Origin: a virus
DNA: 62,264 bases
Reading direction: 5' to 3' (one strand)
IMG/VR virus record: IMGVR_UViG_3300015078_000002
Coordinates: 1-62,264 of that record
This document shows positions 5,778 to 58,016 of the stretch, in pieces; positions within the stretch are counted from its first letter, which is position 1; the number at the start of each line of letters is the position of its first letter. Both the position numbers and the translations under genes were made by a program. The notes beneath the pieces are model-generated. The model made no database searches, was not told the origin of the DNA, and saw nothing but the letters and a program-made list of their open reading frames with translations.

Positions 5778-5900
5778 ATGACCGAACCCAAGACCCCGCA
5801 GACCCCCTCCGACCCGAAGACCCCGCAAGGCCCGGCGCATCCGCCAGCCGCCCCGCACAACCCCAGCATCCCGCACTCGCCGACCCCTCACGGCAAGTAG
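5778..5900 (+). CDS. Pro-rich small ORF (40 aa), doubtful
   Basis: MTEPKTPQTPSDPKTPQGPAHPPAAPHNPSIPHSPTPHGK. Contains the 11-nt direct repeat AAGACCCCGCA (5790-5800, 5817-5827). Could be non-coding repeats instead. Confidence 0.3.
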   Translation: MTEPKTPQTPSDPKTPQGPAHPPAAPHNPSIPHSPTPHGK

Positions 5901-5902
5901 CG

Positions 5903-7207
5903 CTACTCCGATTCCCGCTTGGCGACCGTGCACGAGTAGCAAAGCGCCCCAGCCGGCGCAGCGAACTCGACCTCGGTGATCGCCCCGCAACCGGCGCACG
6001 CGCGATCCTCGAATCCCGGCTTGGGTGGCGGCTCGTCCGGCGGAACTTCGGGCTTGGGCTCGACCGGTGCCGGCGCCGCAGCGGGCTTTCCCGTCAGCGC
6101 GCCTTTGAGCGCTGCGGTGCCCTTGCCCGAGCTCGCGCGGGGCGCAACCTTGGCGAGCTCTGCCGGCTGGGTTGGCGGCTTCGGCCCGGCCTGCACCGCC
6201 GGCGTGGGCACCGGCTCCGCGGGTGCGACCGCGACCGGTGCTGCCGTTGGCGTGTCGCCGATTACCTTGCGTCCGCCGATCACCTCCCCGTCCTGCGGCT
6301 TCGCCGGCTTGTCAGCCTCACGCTCCGCGGTGGCCTCGCGTAAAGCGTCCGCCCATGAGGTCTCGCCCTCCTTGATCGCCGCGTGCAGCCCGAGCAGGAG
6401 CTCGCGCTCGGCCGGCGAGATCGTGTCGGTGCTGTGCCCGAGCCACTGCTCAAGCCCCGACGGCTTGACCCCGATCGCGGCGAACGCGTCGAACATCTTG
6501 TTGCGCGCGGCCGTCGGGTCGATCGCCTTGTCGGCGGCGGCGGTGACCTCCTGGCAGATCCGCCGCGCCTCGTCCTGCAGATGCCCGGGCACGATGCGCA
6601 GGATCCCGGTGCGCGACGCCTTCGAGATCTCCGCGTTCTGCTTCGTGCGCACGTCGTCGTCGGTGGCCTCGACGATGAACACGCGGTCCCCGTACGAGTT
6701 CACGCGCTCGCCGAGGGGGCGCTGCCCCTTCCTGAGCTGCTTGCGCTCCACCGTCTTGGGGATCGTGATATCGGTCCGCCATCGCGAGTTGCGCTCGTAG
6801 TCCACCACCTGCACGCGGATCTGACGCACCGCTGCATCGTCGTAGATCACATCGCTCGATGCCTCCATGTTGCCCATGCACCGCATCGCGACCTCGGCGA
6901 ACCGGATCGACAGGCCCTCGATCGTGGTGCCGGCGCGAGGGATCCGGTAGATCGCGACCGCGGCGAACCCCGGGCGCTTGCACTCCGCGATCAGATCCTG
7001 CCGCACGTCGTCGGCGTTGCGCGGCCATCGCTTGGCCATCACGCACGCTGACTCGACGTCGGCGCGCGCCTTGGCGACGAGCGCCTCGATGGCGCCGTTC
7101 TGCGTCTGCAGGCTGCTGCCCTGGAAGTCTTGCCTGGCGATCTGGTTGTCGCGCCGTGGCTGTGTGGTGAGCGCGCCCGATGGCTCGCCGTTCTCGTAGT
7201 CGGTCAT
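5903..7207 (-). CDS. Single-strand annealing protein candidate (RecT/Rad52-type) with C-terminal Zn ribbon
   Basis: ATG 7207 in an ATGA overlap with the exonuclease gene. ...EGLSIRFAEVAMRCMGNMEASSDVIYDD... A Pro/Ala-rich linker is followed by CAGC...CYSC. The call rests mainly on pairing with the YqaJ exonuclease. Confidence 0.5.
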   Translation of the reverse strand: MTDYENGEPSGALTTQPRRDNQIARQDFQGSSLQTQNGAIEALVAKARADVESACVMAKRWPRNADDVRQDLIAECKRPGFAAVAIYRIPRAGTTIEGLSIRFAEVAMRCMGNMEASSDVIYDDAAVRQIRVQVVDYERNSRWRTDITIPKTVERKQLRKGQRPLGERVNSYGDRVFIVEATDDDVRTKQNAEISKASRTGILRIVPGHLQDEARRICQEVTAAADKAIDPTAARNKMFDAFAAIGVKPSGLEQWLGHSTDTISPAERELLLGLHAAIKEGETSWADALREATAEREADKPAKPQDGEVIGGRKVIGDTPTAAPVAVAPAEPVPTPAVQAGPKPPTQPAELAKVAPRASSGKGTAALKGALTGKPAAAPAPVEPKPEVPPDEPPPKPGFEDRACAGCGAITEVEFAAPAGALCYSCTVAKRESE

Positions 7208-9749: not shown

Positions 9750-10586
9750 ATGACAACGATCTTGCGAGCGCTCATGAACTGGCTCAACGCGCGACCGACA
9801 TCCTCGACGGCGCCCGACCCACCGCCCGCGCCGCCCGCGCCAGACCCAACGCCCGAGCCACTGCCTGTCAAGTCGCCGCTCTTTGTGGCCGGCCTTTGGC
9901 GTGGTTCGCGCTACGCATCCGCCAACCCGAGCCGCGTGGGCGCCCTCATCGATCCTGAGTTCGTCGTCGAGCACACGACCGACATGCACCCGGACGGCTG
10001 GAACGCGCTGGTCACCGCGTGGACAATGACGCCCGGGAATGGGGCATGTGCGCACTTCTTGATCGGTCGCACGCCCGAGCAGGGCGTCGTCCAATTCGTC
10101 CCGATCACGCGCAACGCGAACCACGCCGGCGGCACCACGCACGGCTGGTTCGTGATCAAGGGCGTGCGCTCCCACCCAAACCTGAAGGCGATCGGCATCG
10201 AGATCCACTGCGCCGGCCGCCTGCGAATGAGCGACGGGGTCTGGCGCTGGGGCGAGAACGACGGCAATGGCTGGGTCGCCAAGGGCGCCGCGATCCCGGA
10301 TGCCGAGGTAGAGCCGATCACCCCTTCGACCGGATTTCACCTACCGACCGCCTACCAGATCGCCATGCTGACCCGACTCGAGTTCGACCTCGCCGCCATG
10401 CTGCGCCCGCTGACCGACCGCAACTGGTTGCTGATTCCGAACCCACCGGACCACTGGCCAGCGTGGGCCAAGCCCCTACGCCCGATGGTCCCCGTGCTCG
10501 GCCATGTCCACCTGGACCCGACGAACCGCGAAGACCCCGGCCCGGCGTTGTGCGAGCGGATCTCAAAGTTGACATGGGGTACTTGA
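9750..10586 (+). CDS. N-acetylmuramoyl-L-alanine amidase endolysin (Amidase_2/PGRP type)
   Basis: HFLIGR...ANHAGG...AIGIEIHCAG...GHVHLDPTNREDPGP matches the T7-lysozyme/PGRP amidase signature. Pro-rich N-terminal linker. Confidence 0.8.
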   Translation: MTTILRALMNWLNARPTSSTAPDPPPAPPAPDPTPEPLPVKSPLFVAGLWRGSRYASANPSRVGALIDPEFVVEHTTDMHPDGWNALVTAWTMTPGNGACAHFLIGRTPEQGVVQFVPITRNANHAGGTTHGWFVIKGVRSHPNLKAIGIEIHCAGRLRMSDGVWRWGENDGNGWVAKGAAIPDAEVEPITPSTGFHLPTAYQIAMLTRLEFDLAAMLRPLTDRNWLLIPNPPDHWPAWAKPLRPMVPVLGHVHLDPTNREDPGPALCERISKLTWGT

Positions 10587-10611
10587 CAACGGTTTACTGC
10601 GACGCTACAAA
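10583..10611 (+). promoter_or_regulatory. Sigma70-like promoter candidate (leaderless geometry)
   Basis: TTGACA (10583-10588, overlapping the amidase TGA), 17 nt, TACAAA (10606-10611), 6 nt, ATG 10618. Spacer holds GTTTAC-N6-GCTAC (10592-10608). Confidence 0.55.
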
Positions 10612-10617
10612 CCGGAC

Positions 10618-10845
10618 ATGACGAAACGAACCCAAGCGGTGCTCGGCCTACTCGCCGAATCGGCGCAGCTCACCGCTCTCGAGATCGCGGACAAGCTGCA
10701 GCTCGCGACCGGCAACGCGGTGACGGCCTCGCTCGTGTCGATCTGCGATCAGGGGTTGGCGAACCGCGTGGCCGGCGCGGTCAGGCGCTACGAGGTGACC
10801 GCCCGCGGTCGCGAGGTGTGGCGTACCCTTCAGGAGCGGCCATGA
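10618..10845 (+). CDS. Winged-helix (MarR-like) DNA-binding protein
   Basis: MTKRTQAVLGLLAESAQLTALEIADKLQLATGNAVTASLVSICDQGLANRV... wHTH-like pattern. Confidence 0.5.
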   Translation: MTKRTQAVLGLLAESAQLTALEIADKLQLATGNAVTASLVSICDQGLANRVAGAVRRYEVTARGREVWRTLQERP

Positions 10846-11330
10846 AGATTCTGATCGCCCTGATCGCCCTGATCGCGTTCACCGGCTGCGCCGGCACCTT
10901 CGGCGCGACTGCCCCCGAGCGCCCGCGCACCAGCTGGTTCGAACCGCGCGACACCGCGCTCGAAACCGCGTGGGTGGCGACATCGGCGCTGACCGCGTGC
11001 GACTCGGCCGGCACGATCTGGTCCACGAACTTCGGGGCCTATAACCGCGTCACGAGCCCAGGCATGGTGCTCGGCGAACGCAACCCGATGGTCACCGCAC
11101 TACTCGGCGACCACCCCGGCCCGGCCGCGTTCGTGGTCAGCGGGCTGGTCACGATCGGCGCCTCCTACGCGGTCACCAGGGCCCCGTTGCCTCGCTGGGT
11201 CCGCTGGACGTTGCTCGGGGGCCTTGGCGCCGTGGAGAGTTTCGCCGTGGCCGCCAACGCGCGCTACGCGGGCGCGTGCGGACTGGCCGGTGTCACGGAC
11301 ATGCCACTCTCGATGCCCGGCGCCCGCTAG
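10842..11330 (+). CDS. Lipoprotein with C-terminal hydrophobic segments (spanin-like candidate)
   Basis: ATGA overlap. MKILIALIALIAFTGC has the lipobox FTGC. Two hydrophobic stretches lie near the C-terminus. Adjacent to the endolysin. Confidence 0.6.
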   Translation: MKILIALIALIAFTGCAGTFGATAPERPRTSWFEPRDTALETAWVATSALTACDSAGTIWSTNFGAYNRVTSPGMVLGERNPMVTALLGDHPGPAAFVVSGLVTIGASYAVTRAPLPRWVRWTLLGGLGAVESFAVAANARYAGACGLAGVTDMPLSMPGAR

Positions 11331-33207: not shown

Positions 33208-34254
33208 CTACAGCGCGGCGTCGAGATCCTTGATCACCCCGTTGCGGAACGGGTACCGGCACTGCAGTTGCGGGTACATGATCAGCTGGAACGGGTACGC
33301 GTCGCCCGTCGGCCCCAGCGCGTGGATGCGCGCCGTGAGCTTGCCGGTTGGCTGGCCGAGTTGCTCCTCCGGCGTGCCCATCACGGAGATCATCGCCATC
33401 GACTGGTTCGCCGCAGTGACTTGGTCGGGCAGCTGCAGCACGCGGATCGTCGCCGTGTTCAGCGCGACCATGTTGCCGGTCGGGCAGTCGACATCCTCGA
33501 GAATCGGCACGCCGTCGTGCTCCAGCATGGTGAATCCGCCGTCGAGCGCGATCTGCTGGCCGCGGAGCCGGATGTCCATCACGTAGCGGCGTTGCTGGCC
33601 GAATAGCGAGCCGTACTTGTTGTAGAGCTCGGGCGTGGTCACCCACAGATCCGGCTTCATGCCCGAGGCGCGGTAGATCTGCGCTCGCATCGCGCGCATG
33701 ACATCGAACGTGAGCGCGCGCCCGACGCCGCCGTTCGCGCTGACGTTGGACTGCCACTGCGTGCGCACGGCGCGGTCGATGCCGGCGTACGTACCCGTGT
33801 TCGAGAGCGGGCCGCCCGTCGCGAGCAGCCCGAAAATGAAGTTGGCCGCGCCCGACCCGACCCACAGATCGCCGGCGACACCCTTGGCGAGACGCTCGAC
33901 GCTGTCGCCGAGCTCGTCGACGAACAGGTTGCTCAGCTCCTCGGGATTGCGCGCCGCCGCCGCCATCGCCATCGCCTTGCCGGTGACGGAGAAGGCGGTG
34001 TCGTACGTGCCGAATTCGAGCGCGGCCGGGATCTTGTCGTCGTTGTCGAACGTCACGACGGCAGCGCCCTCGGCCCGGGCCGCTCCGACCGCGGTACCGA
34101 AGCGAGCGGCCCACGTGATGTTCTTTCCCGTGGTGCCGTTGCCGACGGGCAGCACCTGGAGCAGCACCGTGGCGCGGTTGATCTGTGACGCGATGCGATC
34201 CTCGAAGATCGTGGTCAGCGCCGAGGCGATTTGAGCGGTTGCGACGATCGACAA
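33208..34254 (-). CDS. Major capsid protein
   Basis: TTG 34254 after AGGAG. 348 aa, SIVATAQIASALTTIFEDRIASQINRATVLLQVLP... Assigned by size and position in the head module. Confidence 0.65.
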   Translation of the reverse strand: MSIVATAQIASALTTIFEDRIASQINRATVLLQVLPVGNGTTGKNITWAARFGTAVGAARAEGAAVVTFDNDDKIPAALEFGTYDTAFSVTGKAMAMAAAARNPEELSNLFVDELGDSVERLAKGVAGDLWVGSGAANFIFGLLATGGPLSNTGTYAGIDRAVRTQWQSNVSANGGVGRALTFDVMRAMRAQIYRASGMKPDLWVTTPELYNKYGSLFGQQRRYVMDIRLRGQQIALDGGFTMLEHDGVPILEDVDCPTGNMVALNTATIRVLQLPDQVTAANQSMAMISVMGTPEEQLGQPTGKLTARIHALGPTGDAYPFQLIMYPQLQCRYPFRNGVIKDLDAAL

Positions 34255-34437
34255 TGGAGGCTCCTGGGGCGGTGCACGCGGGTTCGCCCGCGCCGCGTTC
34301 GCCCAGGGTCATCCCCTGCCGTGCTCCCACTCCTGGCTCCACAGGAAGTGTAGTGAGTAATACGCTACGTGACACGACTAGAAAGTCAACGAAAATCGGC
34401 GGGTAGGCGATTTCGACGAATTCGGAGCGATCCCCCC

Positions 34438-34466
34438 TTGCGCCCGGTTTACTCCGGTGCTACAAA
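34438..34466 (+). promoter_or_regulatory. Sigma70-like promoter candidate (leaderless geometry) for the plus-strand cassette
   Basis: TTGCGC (34438-34443), 17 nt, TACAAA (34461-34466), 6 nt, ATG 34473. Spacer GTTTACTCCGGTGCTAC is nearly identical in layout to 10592-10608. Confidence 0.5.
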
Positions 34467-34472
34467 CTAAGC

Positions 34473-34631
34473 ATGAACAAAGCAATCGAGACCGCCGCCA
34501 ACAGCGGCTGCATCTTCGGTGTCGTTGTCGTCGCTGTCTTTGCGGTTTGCGGTCACTCGGCCGCCATGTGGCTCCTGCTCGCGCTCGTCGCCAACGTCGC
34601 GGCATTCGTCGCGGTATGGAGCCGGTCGTGA
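34473..34631 (+). CDS. Small two-TM membrane protein (52 aa)
   Basis: MNKAIETAANSGCIFGVVVVAVFAVCGHSAAMWLLLALVANVAAFVAVWSRS. Below the ORF-track cut-off. High GC3. Confidence 0.55.
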   Translation: MNKAIETAANSGCIFGVVVVAVFAVCGHSAAMWLLLALVANVAAFVAVWSRS

Positions 34632-34978
34632 TCGTCCTCGACAGCCAGCACCTGCTCATGGTCGAGCCTACGAGCCCGCGCTCGGCGACCCCCGTGATCG
34701 ACGGCCTGACCCGCAAGATGGCCGCCGCGCTCGCGACAGCACGGATCGGAAACCACTACCGCGGCCAGCACAGCTGCACCGGGCACGGCTGCCGGTCGGC
34801 GAGCGACAATGCCGACCACCACGTCGGCGAGGCGCTGACCAACTCGCTCGCGGTCCACTACCTCGCGTATCACCGCGAGGACGTGCCGGCCGAAGAGTTG
34901 CTCAAGGTCGCCGCGCTGGCGGGTGACGAGGTCGAGCCGACCACGGCCCAGATCGAGGGCGGGGTGTCGCTGTGGTGA
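34616..34978 (+). CDS. Hypothetical protein (120 aa), His/Cys-containing
   Basis: MEPVVIVLDSQHLLMVEP...HYRGQHSCTGHGCRSASDNADHHVGEALTNSLAVHYLAYHREDVP... Confidence 0.6.
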   Translation: MEPVVIVLDSQHLLMVEPTSPRSATPVIDGLTRKMAAALATARIGNHYRGQHSCTGHGCRSASDNADHHVGEALTNSLAVHYLAYHREDVPAEELLKVAALAGDEVEPTTAQIEGGVSLW

Positions 34979-35280
34979 CCGCGGAGACGGCGCCGATGGC
35001 GTACCGCTTTATCGCGACGGCGTACCTCGATGACGCACGCGCGAGCGGGGTTCGGTTCGGAGACCGTAAGGTATTCCTCAGCACCATCCCGGGTATCGAC
35101 CTCACTGACCCCGATTGCACGTTCCTGCTCGACGAGCTGCGCCGCATGCAACTCCTGACCTTTGCGCGCGCCGACTTCGTGGCCGCGATGGACCCTGTGC
35201 TGGTAAGCGCGTCCGAGTGGCGCCTCACGTCGCCCACCGGCGGGACGATGGCAACCTTTCACTTTCTGGTCATCCCGTGA
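34972..35280 (+). CDS. Hypothetical protein (102 aa)
   Basis: GTG start overlapping the upstream stop. ...GDRKVFLSTIPGIDLTDPDCTFLLDELRRMQLLTFARADFVAAMDP... Confidence 0.6.
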   Translation: MVTAETAPMAYRFIATAYLDDARASGVRFGDRKVFLSTIPGIDLTDPDCTFLLDELRRMQLLTFARADFVAAMDPVLVSASEWRLTSPTGGTMATFHFLVIP

Positions 35281-35537
35281 CCCGGCTCGCCGCCGGCACC
35301 GGCGCCCACATCGCAGAATTTCTCGAGTTGCCGCTCGCTCGCGATGGCGACGCCAAACGCGCGCTCCGACGAGGGGCAGCCCGCGCGATGGCCCGCGTGC
35401 TGCGCACTCAACTCGGCTACCCTGGAGCCGCGCTCGCGCTCGAGATGTACGCCGAGGATCTGCGAGCGCCGTTCGATCCGGGCCAGTTTGACGACGATCC
35501 CGACACCGAGATCGTAATCGTCATCGAGGCCGACTAG
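35277..35537 (+). CDS. Hypothetical acidic protein (86 aa)
   Basis: GTG 35277 in a GTGA overlap. TRLAAGTGAHIAEFLELPLARDGDAKR... The TAG stop shares the CTAG at 35534-35537 with the scaffold-gene stop. Confidence 0.55.
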   Translation: MTRLAAGTGAHIAEFLELPLARDGDAKRALRRGAARAMARVLRTQLGYPGAALALEMYAEDLRAPFDPGQFDDDPDTEIVIVIEAD

Positions 35538-36334
35538 CCGGTCGGGATCTGACCGGTCACCAGCTCGGCCGCCGCTGACGCCAGCAACGCGTGAGCCTCG
35601 GCCACCTTCGCGGCGCGCACCGACTTCGCATCGTTGCTCGGCGTCGTGCGCCCCGGGCTGGCGTTGCCGATCACGCGCGGTAGCCCGGTGCCGCCGCGAG
35701 CTGGTTGCGTGGGCGGAGCCACGTGAGCCTTGCCCTCGTCGGTCGCGATCCAGTCCTTGGCGCCGGCCCCGAGGTCGAGCTCCTCGGTGTACCCGTCGCG
35801 CTGCGCGATGTACGACCACTCGCCCGTCTTGTCGTCCTGCCGCGTGTTCTCGCGGAGGATCGCAACCGCGCCGCGCATGAGCTCCGTCTTGACCCCCAGC
35901 TTGCCGAGGTGGTCGCGGAGCGCCGTGTCCCTGGTGAGCGCGGCGGCTTGCGCCTTCTCCGTCTTGCGTTCGGCCTCGAGCGCGTCGAGCTTGCGCTGCA
36001 TCGCGATCAGCGCCGGGCTCTCGCGGTCGGCTGGTCGCGCCGCCTGCTTGCCGTTCTTCGCGTGCCCGTTCTTCGCCTTCGGCGGCGGGGTCTCGTCCTC
36101 ATCCTCATCGTCCTCGTGCTCCTCGGCCTTGGGGCGGGCCTTGAGCAGTTCCTCGATCTTCGTCAGCTGCGGCGTGATCGCGGACTCGACGGCCTTGTCG
36201 AGCTGGCGGCCGAGTTGCTTGCTCACCGCCGAGTTGACCATGCTGCCGAGCCGCGCTAGTTGCGCCTCGGTAAACTCGGCCTCACCGCCCTCGTCTTCGT
36301 TGTCGTCGGACGGCTTCTTGATCTTTGGGGCCAT
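35534..36334 (-). CDS. Scaffolding protein
   Basis: 266 aa, highly charged and helical (EHEDDEDEDE, KLDALEAERKTEKAQAAAL). Between the MuF-like gene/methylase and the capsid region. Confidence 0.6.
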   Translation of the reverse strand: MAPKIKKPSDDNEDEGGEAEFTEAQLARLGSMVNSAVSKQLGRQLDKAVESAITPQLTKIEELLKARPKAEEHEDDEDEDETPPPKAKNGHAKNGKQAARPADRESPALIAMQRKLDALEAERKTEKAQAAALTRDTALRDHLGKLGVKTELMRGAVAILRENTRQDDKTGEWSYIAQRDGYTEELDLGAGAKDWIATDEGKAHVAPPTQPARGGTGLPRVIGNASPGRTTPSNDAKSVRAAKVAEAHALLASAAAELVTGQIPTG

Positions 36335-36351: not shown

Positions 36352-37335
36352 TTACTCCAGCACGTCTAGCGCGGCGCGAATGAAGCGGGCGGCTACCTGT
36401 GGGACTATCGCGTTTCCGTAGCCCCGCAGTAACCCCACACGGCCGGGAAGCCCTGCAACCAACGGCTCAAGTCCGGGTTCAATTGGCCGCGAGACTCCGT
36501 CGGAACAGGCGATCCATTCGGCGTTACACCATGGGTCATCTGGACCTGCAACGCGAGCGACGTCACTGATTCCCCGAGGCTGCTTCCATTCGCCCTCGAT
36601 TTCCGCTTGCGTGCGACCTGCGCCGCTGGGGTTCCACCCGCTTCGTGCGCCGCTGGGGTTGCCCAACTGGCAGCCGTTCCGAGACACGCCCCCCCTTCCG
36701 TGTGACTCGTCTTGCCCTTGGCGTCCCGAGCCAAAGCTGTCGGCCAGGCCGACAGCTTCGCGATGCCGCCGAGCTTCAATGTCTTCTGATCGTGGTCCCC
36801 GTTGCGGTAGCTGTAATCTCCGTCCCGCGTCTGCGGCGTAGGCCACGAAGTAGAGGCGCTGCCGGATGTGCGGCGCGCCGACGCCCGCAGCGCACAGATC
36901 CGATGCCCCGAAGGCGTAACCGCATCGTTCCAGGTCAGCGCGAACAAGATCGAGCCATCCAAGTCCGTCGCGGCTCGCAACCTGCTCTCCAAAGATCGTT
37001 GCAGGTCGGCACTCGCGGATGAGCTCGAACCATGCTGGCCAAAGATGTCGAGCGTCGCGTGTTCCGCCCCTCTTGCCCGCGTCGGAGAACGGCTGGCACG
37101 GACACGACCCGGTCCAGATGTCTGAGGTGTCTGGGACGCCTGCGAGTCTGAGTGCGTAAGACCAGCCGCCGATCCCAGCGAAGAAATGCCGCTGTCCCGG
37201 TCCGGCAACGTCATCTGCGGCGAGATCGACGATGCTCCTTCGATCAACAGTTCCGGCTGCGACGTGGCCTCTTGCGGTGAGGTTCTCGAGCCACCGTGCA
37301 GCGAACTTGTCGATCTCGTTGTAGAGCGCATGCAA
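36352..37335 (-). CDS. DNA (cytosine-5) methyltransferase
   Basis: FFAGIGG (motif I), SCPCQPFS (IV), IFGEQV (VI), IRQRLYFVA (VIII), GNAIVPQVA (X). TTG 37335 or ATG 37331 start. Confidence 0.85.
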   Translation of the reverse strand: MHALYNEIDKFAARWLENLTARGHVAAGTVDRRSIVDLAADDVAGPGQRHFFAGIGGWSYALRLAGVPDTSDIWTGSCPCQPFSDAGKRGGTRDARHLWPAWFELIRECRPATIFGEQVASRDGLGWLDLVRADLERCGYAFGASDLCAAGVGAPHIRQRLYFVAYAADAGRRLQLPQRGPRSEDIEARRHREAVGLADSFGSGRQGQDESHGRGGVSRNGCQLGNPSGARSGWNPSGAGRTQAEIEGEWKQPRGISDVARVAGPDDPWCNAEWIACSDGVSRPIEPGLEPLVAGLPGRVGLLRGYGNAIVPQVAARFIRAALDVLE

Positions 37336-37342
37336 GCACCGA

Positions 37343-37370
37343 GTTTACATCGCGACTACGAACCGATCAA
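37343..37370 (-). promoter_or_regulatory. Sigma70-like promoter candidate with GTAAAC -10 box
   Basis: TTGATC (37370-37365), 16 nt, GTAAAC (37348-37343), 7 nt to TTG 37335. Contains GTAGT-CGCGAT-GTAAAC. Confidence 0.45.
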
Positions 37371-38827
37371 CGCCCAAACGGCCACCATCGCCGCTTTGGC
37401 AGCGCGGTCGCCTTGGGGAGCGGGCCGCGGTCCGCCGCTGTGGGCTGCACCGGGTTTCGACGACGGGCCTCGCCCTCGTGCATGAGCCTCACGCGCTCCT
37501 GATGCTCGCGTTGCTTGCGTCGCTCTTCGTCGTGGAACGATTCGGCGCGCGGCTTCTCGGCGAGGTGTACCACCTGGCGGGTTCGCTGCTGGTCCCCGTG
37601 CTGCCAGATCGACGTGGTGCCACGCGGGGCCGCGGCCCGCTCGGCTGCCTGCGATTCCTCCACCAGCTTCGCCAGGCGCGCGATCGCCCGCTGGGTCGCC
37701 GCCATGTGCGCCTCCTCGGTGACGTGCGCGCGAGCCGGAACCTCACGCGTCGGCGCCACTGGTTCGCCCTCGTCGGCGTGGATGCGGTGCTCGCCGATGC
37801 GTATGGCCCGGGGTTCGTGCTCGTCGATCCGGTTGTCGACCGCGCGCGGCCCGTCGTCGGGTTGAATCGGCTCGGGCTGCGGCGGCGGGATCGATTCGGC
37901 CTTGACGCGCGCGGCGCCCTTGTCGCTCCACCGGGGGTTCCACGCGACGAGAATGCAGCGATCATGCGGATGGATGGGTGGCCGCACGTAGCCGCCCGGG
38001 AACGTGCCGCCGATCGGCGCCGTCTTGCCGTCGAGTCCCATGCAGATCGGGCACGTCACGCTGTCCGCGGTCGCGTCCCACTTCCGCACGTACTCGGGCT
38101 CACCGTCGGGTCGGTTCTCGTTCGCGTGCTCGGTCGCGATGTCGTGGAGCACGTTGTAGCTGTTCATGACCTCGGTGCGCACCAACCGGTCGGCCCAGTA
38201 CCTCTGCCTCTGGAACAGCCCGCCGGCGATCGCCGCCGCATCGTGCCCCGGGTCGAACGGGCCGCGGCGCGAGCCGCCCCCGAGCCCTCGCAGCCTCGCG
38301 ACCATCTGTTCGATCGTCTCGTGCTTCGCCACGCCGACCGCGAGCAGATGCTTGATGTCGTTGCCGACGTCGCCCGCGTAGCGCCGCGCCGATGACTCAT
38401 GCCGCTTCCAGAGCAGCTTATTCCCCTGCGCCAGCACCGCCGCCGTGTTGATGTCGGGCAGATGCGGGACGCCGTGGCCAAACACCGCCGAGAGCCGCGT
38501 GAGCTCGGTGTCCAGGTTGGCGATCGCCAGCGGCCCCGCCGCGTGCCGGCCGGCGGCGAGCGCGTGGCCCATGGCCGGATCGAGCTCGGCCACGCGGTCG
38601 AAGGTCGACTCGAGCGCGCGCAGGGCCTCGGTGCGACGTAGCGCGCTGAACTTGTCCTCGCCCTTGACCCGGCTCAGGAAGTCCAACATGTCGGCCTGGA
38701 GCTCGGCGCGGACCTGGCGCAGGGCTGGTAGCACGGCACGCAGCGCCTCGGGGGCCAACGCGTCGACGTGGGCCACCGACTCGCGAACCAGGCGCTGGAC
38801 GGCTGCGGCTTGCTGTACCGTTGACAT
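37367..38827 (-). CDS. Head morphogenesis protein (SPP1 gp7 / Mu F family)
   Basis: ...RTEVMNSYNVL...WDATADSVTCPICMGLDGKT...PPIHPHDRC... is the family signature. Long charged C-terminal extension. Confidence 0.8.
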   Translation of the reverse strand: MSTVQQAAAVQRLVRESVAHVDALAPEALRAVLPALRQVRAELQADMLDFLSRVKGEDKFSALRRTEALRALESTFDRVAELDPAMGHALAAGRHAAGPLAIANLDTELTRLSAVFGHGVPHLPDINTAAVLAQGNKLLWKRHESSARRYAGDVGNDIKHLLAVGVAKHETIEQMVARLRGLGGGSRRGPFDPGHDAAAIAGGLFQRQRYWADRLVRTEVMNSYNVLHDIATEHANENRPDGEPEYVRKWDATADSVTCPICMGLDGKTAPIGGTFPGGYVRPPIHPHDRCILVAWNPRWSDKGAARVKAESIPPPQPEPIQPDDGPRAVDNRIDEHEPRAIRIGEHRIHADEGEPVAPTREVPARAHVTEEAHMAATQRAIARLAKLVEESQAAERAAAPRGTTSIWQHGDQQRTRQVVHLAEKPRAESFHDEERRKQREHQERVRLMHEGEARRRNPVQPTAADRGPLPKATALPKRRWWPFGR

Positions 38828-51699: not shown

Positions 51700-52042
51700 C
51701 AAGGTGGAGCGCTCGCGGGAAGGCGTACGCCATCCACGCCTTGCGGAGCCGCTCGTTCGCGAACGCCTGATCTCCCTCGCCGTCCTTTTTCCCGTCGCAC
51801 TCGTACCAATCGCGCACGGCGTCGACGAGCGGCTGCAGTCCCTGTAATGCGTCGTAATGTTGTCCTGCGATCCGGCGCCACAACCCATCCTGCCCCGCGG
51901 CGATGACATGTTCCCGCGTGTCCCGCAGGATGAGCGCGAGCCCATGCACACTCTGGTGTAGGTCGTTCGGCCCGTGGTTTCGCTGCTCGTGCAGCTCGAT
52001 GATCAAGTTCTCGAGCATTTCGTCGAGTGGTGTAGTCGGCAT
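51674..52042 (-). CDS. Hypothetical protein (122 aa)
   Basis: MPTTPLDEMLENLIIELHEQRNHGPNDLHQSVHGLALILRDTREH... Confidence 0.65.
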   Translation of the reverse strand: MPTTPLDEMLENLIIELHEQRNHGPNDLHQSVHGLALILRDTREHVIAAGQDGLWRRIAGQHYDALQGLQPLVDAVRDWYECDGKKDGEGDQAFANERLRKAWMAYAFPRALHLVDKSTAPR

Positions 52043-56918: not shown

Positions 56919-58016
56919 TCATAGGCGCATCGGCATCGCCACGCAGCGATGACTCTTGTCCCCGAACGGCATGATCAGCGCGGGGTCCACGTCGGTGCCG
57001 AGCGCGATCACAGCCTGTTCGCTCGTCATCGTCGAGAGTATCTCCACCAGGTACTTCGGGTTGAACCCGATCGACAGGTGCGGGCCGCTGCACTCGGCGC
57101 CGATCTCGTCGGAGACCTGCCCCATGTCCGGGTGCTCGGACACGAGGGACAGACCGTCCGCCGACGTCGTGATCTTCACGCCGCGCGTCTCGCTGGTCAT
57201 CAGCTGCACGCGCTTGAGCGACTCGATCAGGCGCAGCCGGTCGACGGTGACCAGCGTCTTGTTGGCGATCCCGTCGAACATCGTGCGCAGGTTCGGGAAC
57301 TCGGCGGCGATCAGCTTGGCGGCGATCGTGAGCGTGCCGACCTGCACGAATAGGATCGGCCCGGCGACGCCGACCATGGGCGCCTCGTTGCTCTCGGCGA
57401 TCTTGCGGATCTCGCCCAGCCCCTTGCGCGGCACCAGAACACCATTGTCGAACACCGGGCCGGCCGCGATGCGCTCGACCACCGAGGCCCGATGCCCGTC
57501 GGTCGCCGATGCGCGCATGACCTTGCCGTCGCTCTCGAGCAGCACGCCCGCGAGGTTGAACTTCGCGTCATCCAGCGACGTCGCGAAGATCGTGCGGTCG
57601 ATCAGGTCGCGCAGTACGATCGGGTCGACCTTGACCAGCTTGGCCTCGGTCGCGATCGGGACGCGAGGGAAGTCGCGGTCCGACATGCCGAGCAACTTGT
57701 ACTTCGCCTTCCCGCTCTTGATCTCGGCGTGGTTACCGTCGCTCTTCTTGAGCGTCACATCCTCGCCTGGCGCGTTGGCCACGAGCTCGTAGAGGCTCTT
57801 GGCGTCAAGCGCGATCCCGCCCTCGACGGCGTTGGCGCTCTTGAGCTCGGCGGTCAGCGAGACGTTGAGGTCGGTGGCGGCGACCAGGATCTGCCCCTTG
57901 CCGTGCGTGCGCAGCACGACGTTGCCCAGCATCGGCATCACGTTTTTCTTGTCCGCGATGCCCTGCGCCAGCTTGAGGCCGCGGAGAAACTCGAGCTTTG
58001 CGATTCGGAATTCCAT
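56919..58016 (-). CDS. dnaN: DNA polymerase III beta subunit (sliding clamp)
   Basis: 365 aa. MEFRIAKLEFLRGLKLAQGIADKKNVMPMLGNVVL...ATDGHRAS...IGFNPKYLVEIL... Canonical three-domain clamp pattern. Confidence 0.85.
   Translation of the reverse strand: MEFRIAKLEFLRGLKLAQGIADKKNVMPMLGNVVLRTHGKGQILVAATDLNVSLTAELKSANAVEGGIALDAKSLYELVANAPGEDVTLKKSDGNHAEIKSGKAKYKLLGMSDRDFPRVPIATEAKLVKVDPIVLRDLIDRTIFATSLDDAKFNLAGVLLESDGKVMRASATDGHRASVVERIAAGPVFDNGVLVPRKGLGEIRKIAESNEAPMVGVAGPILFVQVGTLTIAAKLIAAEFPNLRTMFDGIANKTLVTVDRLRLIESLKRVQLMTSETRGVKITTSADGLSLVSEHPDMGQVSDEIGAECSGPHLSIGFNPKYLVEILSTMTSEQAVIALGTDVDPALIMPFGDKSHRCVAMPMRL

Follow-up and report, generated by a model that had tools for sequence, protein, structure and literature searches.

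Why should four small genes stand between the putative scaffold gene and the major capsid gene of a phage, on the strand opposite to both, and do the four belong together? We addressed this question in a 62,264-nucleotide (nt) stretch of viral DNA (IMG/VR record IMGVR_UViG_3300015078_000002, positions 1 to 62,264), which is called the window here and to which all coordinates refer unless a contig is named. The guanine-plus-cytosine (GC) content of the window is 66.5%, and nearly all of its coding lies on the minus strand. A sequence-only reading had described the four plus-strand genes, here o1 to o4, as an independently promoted accessory cassette wedged between two head genes. Our analyses suggest that they are probably small, mutually independent accessory genes that form a strain-specific mosaic in a recombination-prone slot, most likely a set used in conflict with the host. 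The features on which the argument turns are as follows.

34473-34631, plus strand: o1, 52 amino acids (aa), two predicted transmembrane segments; from open reading frame (ORF), GC at third codon positions (GC3) and independent gene call
34628-34978, plus strand: o2, 116 aa, member of an uncurated family (34616-34978 and 120 aa if ATG 34616 is the start)
34996-35280, plus strand: o3, 94 aa, an uncurated domain (34972-35280 and 102 aa if GTG 34972 is the start)
35277-35537, plus strand: o4, 86 aa, acidic (isoelectric point 4.7), member of a small family
about 34390-35533, no strand: variable slot without counterpart in relatives, reaching from the scaffold stop almost to the capsid -35 element, which lies outside it
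33208-34254, minus strand: major capsid protein gene, by SU10_MCP and phrog_9953
35534-36334, minus strand: putative scaffold gene, 266 aa, by position, composition and 62% identity in relatives

The variable slot and its cargo

The presence or absence of the cassette was compared in related phages, represented by seven contigs that were retrieved through the capsid protein (L001-L003, L078 and L079 among them). In L078 and L079, the most distant (capsid 72% identical), the scaffold stop and the capsid start are 199 nt apart. L001-L003, in which the capsid gene is 89-90% identical, have a slot of 1.4-1.6 kilobases (kb) at this position, and its cargo is unrelated to o1-o4 and differs between contigs. 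This cargo comprises several small ORFs on both strands together with a tRNA-Met (CAT) gene, located at 5104-5178 in L001, 1423-1497 in L002 and 5139-5213 in L003. One 62-aa ORF of the slot cargo runs on the opposite strand, convergent with and overlapping the scaffold stop, and L001 and L002 both have an opposite-strand ORF across that stop. Searches with tblastn found none of o1-o4 in L001-L003 or L076-L079. On the capsid side the boundary is sharp: similarity between the capsid-upstream regions begins exactly at TTGACT, and nothing further upstream can be aligned. The cassette sits between two genes that are nearly adjacent in L078 and L079, which is the presence/absence pattern of an accessory island. 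These comparisons support the view, already proposed from the sequence, that o1-o4 are accessory cargo, and they place that cargo in a recombination-prone slot of the head module.

Another item of slot cargo deserves mention in its own right. L001 (4868-5059, minus strand) and L003 (4903-5094, minus strand) each carry a 63-aa ORF in which the stretch MKQT.KRVLKLSRESVRVLSSRQL..AGGG precedes a tail rich in Cys. Judged by eye, this ORF resembles the precursor of a double-glycine-leader bacteriocin or of a ribosomally synthesised and post-translationally modified peptide.

The four plus-strand genes between the minus-strand scaffold and capsid genes were recovered both from the ORFs and by independent gene calls on contig L011, which returned 52, 116, 94 and 86 aa. 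L011 is the same sequence as the window from another assembly (100% over 17,189 bases), so that it informs on gene calls and offers nothing on substitutions. Sizes of 52, 120, 102 and 86 aa had been given before; the first and last stand, whereas the middle two are more likely 116 and 94 aa. The start of o2 is more likely GTG 34628, which overlaps the o1 stop as GTGA, and that of o3 is more likely ATG 34996, 9 nt downstream of GGAGA. Both starts are favored because of the N-termini of homologues and the independent gene call. The genes are closely packed, with GTGA overlaps at the o1/o2 and o3/o4 junctions and a 17-nt spacer containing GGAGA between o2 and o3. As had been observed earlier, the CTAG at 35534-35537 is common to the o4 stop and the scaffold stop.

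The GC fractions at codon positions 1/2/3 are 0.60/0.49/0.79 for o1, 0.70/0.47/0.93 for o2, 0.63/0.50/0.83 for o3 and 0.79/0.48/0.78 for o4, the coding signal of the last being ambiguous. The coding pattern, in which position 2 is low and position 3 high, is confined to the cassette frames, and the long minus-strand ORFs opposite them lack it. That o2, o3 and o4 are real genes is settled by homology. The o1 gene looks real, based on its GC3, the gene call, its two hydrophobic segments and its position at the promoter element. At 67.4% GC versus 66.5% for the genome, the cassette shows no compositional anomaly.

None of the four proteins matched Pfam, PHROGs, PADLOC or NCBIfam above noise; in PADLOC, no family was hit at E≤0.01, and none of the Pfam, PHROGs and NCBIfam searches gave a helix-turn-helix (HTH) family match. 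PDB sequences, searched with profiles, likewise yielded nothing. The earlier statement that no family could be recognized holds for these curated collections and fails beyond them, where o2, o3 and o4 each proved to have an uncurated family of homologues.

These families also allowed the unity of the cassette to be examined. Across more than 40 loci with relatives of o2, o3 or o4, a second cassette gene was found in none, and 26 loci around o2 or stand-alone o3 homologues revealed no recurrent neighbor gene family. Elsewhere the four genes are not linked to one another, and this argues for a mosaic of independent accessory genes. The idea of one co-inherited functional unit, which had been implied by treating the four as a single cassette, does not agree with homologues that occur separately and share no neighbors.

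Promoter-like elements and transcription

Four further features bear on how the cassette would be expressed.

34438-34466, plus strand: cassette promoter-like element, by sequence and a motif shared with 10590-10612
10583-10620, plus strand: sibling promoter-like element, TTGACA-N17-TACAAA within GCTACAAAC, then N5-ATG, by the shared motif
34255-34389, minus strand: capsid promoter-like element and leader of about 125 nt, by four-way DNA alignment
35537-35557, no strand: hairpin of 9 bp where the two units converge, weak as a terminator candidate and without a U-tract

The cassette element consists of a -35 hexamer TTGCGC (34438-34443), a 17-nt spacer and a -10 hexamer TACAAA (34461-34466), and with the preceding TGC the latter forms an extended -10, TGCTACAAA (34458-34466). 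Its resemblance to an element at 10583-10611 had been pointed out from the sequence and was borne out by motif counts. The combination CGGTTTACT-N5-GCTACAAAC occurs in exactly two copies in the window (at 10590 and 34445, with 18 shared bases) versus 0.00 expected from shuffles, and both copies end 5 nt ahead of an ATG. The sibling element precedes a 75-aa gene (10618-10845, plus strand) that reads like a winged-helix protein. When the motif was relaxed to GCTANAA-N4-9-ATG, five matches were found in the window versus 0.2 expected. Four of the five align as TTGAC(C/A) or TTGCGC, N17-18, (T)GCTAYAAAC, N5-6 and ATG, and this aligned family heads ORFs at 34473 and 10618 on the plus strand and at 52042 and 501 on the minus strand. 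The L001 slot has two further copies of the layout, which lie on different strands. The exact motif was absent from IMG/VR and from the retrieved loci, except for the identical contig L011.

The spacers of this family also show some internal structure. The plus-strand copies (10618, 34473) have CGGTTTACT in common. The minus-strand copies (501, 52042) and those of L001 carry CGTAGC or GTAGC in the spacer, and these might be operator sites.

The ATG of o1 (34473) lies 7 nt past the -10 hexamer. Because the -10 ends this close to the start codon and no Shine-Dalgarno sequence fits between the two, we predict leaderless mRNAs made by a host sigma-70-type polymerase, a prediction drawn from element geometry at the level of consensus. 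Under this scheme, the host RNA polymerase would start at the A of the o1 ATG, and o2, o3 and o4 would be translated from the leaderless message by coupling, through the GTGA overlaps and the one GGAG site. The cassette would share its expression with the other three leaderless units; this would probably be early and would not depend on transcription of the head genes.

The capsid gene has an upstream element of its own, made up of TTGACT (34389-34384), N17 and TAGCGT, with AGGAG ahead of a TTG start. In a four-way alignment of capsid-upstream DNA, the last ~80 nt are almost invariant and the neighboring DNA is unrelated; the L001 counterpart is at 5860-6000, and L079 shows partial similarity to the element and leader. 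The leader matches nothing in Rfam and, by folding energy, does not stand out from shuffles (z-score -1.27). Since the capsid gene has this element, the cassette promoter would stand back-to-back with the capsid promoter, and the capsid gene could be expressed without transcription through the cassette. The sequence-only reading had placed the cassette inside one scaffold-capsid transcription unit, and the conserved capsid element speaks against this. On the predicted elements, the cassette lies between two transcription units and is convergent on the scaffold unit only. The collision with head-gene transcription that had been foreseen is thus narrowed: overlap of cassette transcription with scaffold-unit transcripts is plausible, whereas the capsid unit, with its own back-to-back promoter-like element, would not be involved. 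The hairpin at the convergent junction has a predicted energy of -18 kcal/mol, no better than shuffles (z-score -0.66).

The cassette proteins and their possible roles

The hydropathy of o1 peaks at residues 11-27 and 31-49. We propose that o1 would be a small membrane protein, possibly acting in exclusion or membrane perturbation.

The o2 family is large. At E≤1e-3, 498 homologues were found, mostly stand-alone proteins of 110-125 aa, and the family is uncurated. Its invariant or near-invariant residues are H48, C50, C55, S59, TNSL, H77, Y78, H82 and R83, and this His/Cys pattern suggests a metal site. The AlphaFold2 model of o2 is confident (predicted local distance difference test score, pLDDT, 93.1). 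Foldseek searches with it found nothing significant in the PDB (best E 0.73), and in BFVD gave weak matches only, to uncharacterized proteins of jumbo phages and giant viruses (best E 0.014). Family members occur on viral contigs of 29-70% GC, some of them very large (12 IMG/VR contigs span 29-63%), and one homologue lies in a bacterial chromosome beside dnaG and rpoD, a housekeeping context. Taken together, these features are consistent with a broadly mobile small protein that possibly binds metal.

In contrast to these hundreds of sequences, o4 has 13 homologues at E≤1e-3 with 44-69% identity, although HMMER was run exhaustively over 1.84 billion representatives. The family core reads LELP...AKRAL.RGA.R.AAR.LR..LGYPGAALALE.YAE.LR and is followed by an acidic tail; we read o4 as a helical protein with an acidic tail. 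One homologue is surrounded by small phage-like genes, and no o4 relatives were found in IMG/VR. Among GenBank phages (INPHARED), tblastn gave no match for o2 or o3, and a 10-kb DNA query matched a methyltransferase fragment only.

The most informative of the four proteins is o3, for which 496 homologues share the motifs FGDRKVF, RADLVAAMDP, SE and FHF in a domain that is uncurated. Its AlphaFold2 model has a pLDDT of 95.6. A Foldseek comparison with the PDB gave no significant match (best E 0.66); the weak matches were mostly to winged-helix proteins, with a template modeling (TM) score of ~0.4. Remote-homology searches and structure prediction, which had been suggested for all four proteins, have therefore yielded homologue families for o2-o4 and confident models for o2 and o3, and no significant fold match in the PDB.

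The homologues of o3 fall into several settings. At 63 genome loci, nearly all in Myxococcota and chiefly in Kofleriaceae, with multiple copies in several genomes, the domain mostly forms the extreme C-terminus of a middle protein of ~330 aa (~300-450 aa; L012-L074; examples of the operon are L041 6592-11914 and L006 182-4721). In 51 of the 63, ORF extraction showed that the next gene encodes an ATPase of ~1250 aa, often with overlapping stop and start codons. The ATPase matches AAA_22, nSTAND1 and BrxC_BrxD and then DUF87/HerA, that is, it has STAND-like and HerA/FtsK-like parts. The gene preceding the middle gene usually encodes a DUF559/MTES_1575 nuclease-like protein. A literature search for a DUF559 plus HerA-type operon found no description. 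This widespread nuclease-like/middle/ATPase operon looks like an undescribed defense system. As a separate observation, the operon genes of L041 and L021 fail a GC3 filter that neighboring genes pass.

A second setting is that of o3 itself. Stand-alone proteins of ~92 aa, o3 included, form a group with 56-71% identity within the group, found on phage-like contigs; identity between o3 and the domain of the operon's middle protein is 45-50%. The stand-alone homologues either adjoin a large serine recombinase, open a series of small genes, or come third behind a divergent CI-type HTH gene. By gene context, they occupy early or lysogeny-switch regions of phage-like contigs. In a third setting, phage contigs of IMG/VR carry the domain as a tandem pair that follows a receiver (Response_reg) domain, as the C-terminal part of a GDSL-lipase protein, or inside a 1239-aa protein; the loci with tandem or fused domains are L084 4164-5660, L086 3582-5648, L090 3435-5252, L088 3762-5237 and L081 3456-7175.

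Based on these observations, o3 may be an anti-defense or regulatory protein. A more specific proposal is that o3 and its ~92-aa phage relatives constitute a domain-only anti-defense family that disables the undescribed Myxococcota nuclease-like/middle/ATPase system, the phage copy competing with or poisoning the C-terminal module of the middle protein. We regard this as a speculative and, on present evidence, rather improbable scenario. Within the cassette, o3 would be the strongest candidate if an inhibitor or decoy of that operon is present, or else a small regulator. The relatives of the phage point to Myxococcota hosts (Kofleriaceae/Haliangiales-like). In the mosaic that we favor, the cassette products would act on the host and not in the virion.

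Several observations weigh against the defense link and the scheme as a whole. PADLOC recognized no known system in the Myxococcota operon, with only weak matches to the ATPase of 31 bits or less. Given its receiver, lipase and 1239-aa contexts, the o3 domain may serve more generally in binding, or in DNA binding, and have nothing to do with defense. A simple homotypic-adaptor decoy was considered as a model and gained no support from sequence, as no o3-like domain was found in the full-length ATPase alignment (hhalign probability 0.06%, E 0.73). For the cassette, our scan found no intrinsic terminator after o4, o1 has no homologues in IMG/VR, and the promoter and leaderless start are predictions at the level of consensus. 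Neither an integrase nor a repressor was found among the scanned ORFs of the window.

This last point bears directly on the first of the alternatives. In the moron concept of Hendrix and colleagues, extra genes with their own promoter lie between genes that are adjacent in related phages. The cassette could be a classical lysogenic-conversion moron that is expressed from the prophage, with o1 and its partners excluding superinfecting phages or altering the cell surface. Its own sigma-70-like element, which does not depend on late transcription, would suit this role, as would the small size and two predicted transmembrane segments of o1; moreover, among the stand-alone o3 homologues, some have a CI-type HTH gene as neighbor and some a large serine recombinase. 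However, the scanned ORFs revealed no attachment features in addition to lacking an integrase and a repressor, neither a terminator nor a compositional signature was found, and the same type of promoter heads three other units that may be ordinary early genes. We therefore consider a lysogenic moron unlikely, while conceding it a real chance. The description of the cassette as a typical moron, which had been offered at the outset, agrees with the presence/absence pattern and, at the sequence level only, with the promoter-like element, and disagrees with respect to terminator and composition.

Another possibility is a regulatory cassette, in which o3 is a winged-helix-like DNA binder and convergent transcription that enters the scaffold gene sets the timing of head-gene expression or dampens it. 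The weak winged-helix matches of o3 are in keeping with DNA binding, as is the location of its domain in phage proteins, where it follows receiver domains as an output domain usually does. The o4 and scaffold stops overlap without a terminator, so the transcripts must overlap, and L001 and L002 likewise have an opposite-strand ORF across the scaffold stop. On the other hand, the fold matches of o3 are not significant, relatives with an empty slot do without such a unit, and the cargo varies between close relatives. Together these points make a regulatory cassette distinctly unlikely.

A third alternative is that the four genes serve the capsid as decoration or assembly accessories. Adjacency of scaffold and capsid genes, which had been taken as normal, is not a rule, and the cassette occupies the same position as gpD in lambda and, in the Mu-like phages of Pseudomonas (PaMx73), gene h, both of which lie between scaffold and capsid genes (PMC4378225). 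Nevertheless, the strand is opposite to that of the head genes, the cassette is missing from relatives with 89-90% identical capsids, o2 has homologues in bacterial chromosomes and in viruses of 29-70% GC, and o3 homologues occur in early regions; a capsid-serving role is thus highly improbable. Finally, high-GC DNA does yield many long spurious ORFs, dozens of which are listed in this region, but the notion of chance open frames in a non-coding gap is already refuted for o2, o3 and o4 and can hardly be credited at all, since the GC3 pattern singles out exactly the cassette frames, there are hundreds of homologues with conserved motifs (o1 alone has none), and the structures of o2 and o3 are predicted with confidence.

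The mosaic of host-conflict genes thus remains our preferred explanation. An accessory island in a variable head-module slot is routine in phage genomics, and it maps the sites of cargo exchange in this phage group. The promoter family with leaderless geometry could define host-dependent transcription units in uncultured Myxococcota phages. Two large protein families, those of o2 and o3, are absent from Pfam, PHROGs and NCBIfam and have confident folds without significant PDB counterparts. If the proposed link between o3 and the multi-copy Myxococcota operon were true, it would provide a defense system and its possible inhibitor as a pair.

Neighboring genes and known systems

Two further head-module features lie beyond the scaffold gene.

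36352-37335, minus strand: C5 cytosine DNA methyltransferase gene, by PF00145 and phrog_363 (E 2e-73)
37367-38827, minus strand: Mu-F-like head morphogenesis gene, by Pfam and PHROG matches

The capsid gene was assigned by its matches to Pfam SU10_MCP (26.9 bits; cut-off 24.1) and to phrog_9953, 'major head protein' (E 1e-25). The 266-aa gene had no family matches in Pfam, PHROGs or NCBIfam; it is putatively the scaffold gene, based on its place between the Mu-F-like and capsid genes, on a composition that is charged and coiled-coil-like, and on the fact that relatives conserve it. The position of the methyltransferase gene, between the Mu-F-like and scaffold genes, is a second variable slot: L079 has no methyltransferase there, and L001 and L003 have unrelated ORFs of 152 and 132 aa instead. 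The Mu-F-like protein of this distant relative (L079 1298-3253) is 651 aa long and has a proline-rich linker and a C-terminal extension that, by eye only, resembles an ADP-ribosyltransferase toxin domain (R...STS...E pattern).

Elsewhere, the window has a gene for the DNA polymerase III beta sliding clamp (56919-58016, minus strand), which is complete in that none of the three Pfam domains is missing. The genome's other plus-strand island spans 9750-11330 and contains an Amidase_2 endolysin-like gene (9750-10586), the 75-aa gene behind the sibling element and, within 10818-11330, an ORF with a lipoprotein-like signal. A holin or lysis cassette was considered for o1-o4 and rejected; o2, o3 and o4 gave no lysis-family matches in Pfam or PHROGs, and this Amidase_2 gene, the only one found, is 24 kb distant. 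No tRNA genes and no Rfam families were found in the window.

How, then, does the cassette compare with systems that are already known? The lambda cI message from PRM is a leaderless phage transcript. The units described here are similar in that 7 nt separate the end of the -10 from the A of the ATG and a Shine-Dalgarno sequence is absent, and four such units occur in the window. They differ in that their start sites are predicted from sequence and in that the layout marks a family of units, not one repressor gene. With the morons of lambdoid and other temperate phages, the cassette shares its placement between genes that are adjacent in relatives and its own promoter-like element; unlike them, it has no detected terminator and does not differ in composition, and no integrase or repressor was found among the scanned ORFs of the window.

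Poxviral pyrin-only or CARD-only proteins are domain-only decoys of host immune adaptors. By analogy, o3 would be a stand-alone copy of one module of a multi-protein NTPase operon of the presumed host. In contrast to the poxviral case, interaction with o3 and inhibition by it are only proposed, the operon is a candidate defense system, and a matching domain was not found in the ATPase.

The anti-CRISPR loci of Pseudomonas phages have the same reading direction as the head genes. These loci carry the HTH regulator Aca1 (PMC8633003). Within the genomic plasticity region (RGP) termed RGP G, anti-CRISPR genes occur with aca1 (PMC4378225; PMC11445458), and the region coincides with low GC (PMC4378225). 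The cassette is unlike these loci in lying on the opposite strand, in having no detectable HTH gene and genome-like GC, and in encoding proteins without resemblance to known anti-CRISPR proteins (Pfam, PHROGs) or any PADLOC entry. In the comparison phages, the protease-scaffold gene has variable regions on either side, and the interval from the scaffold gene to the major head gene is the site of RGP H (PMC4378225; PMC11445458). The likeness to these RGP regions lies in the arrangement: small exchanged accessory genes stand amid head-morphogenesis genes near a Mu-F-like gene, their content varies in collinear phages, and the window also has two slots flanking the scaffold gene, one occupied by the methyltransferase gene and the other by the o1-o4 cassette.

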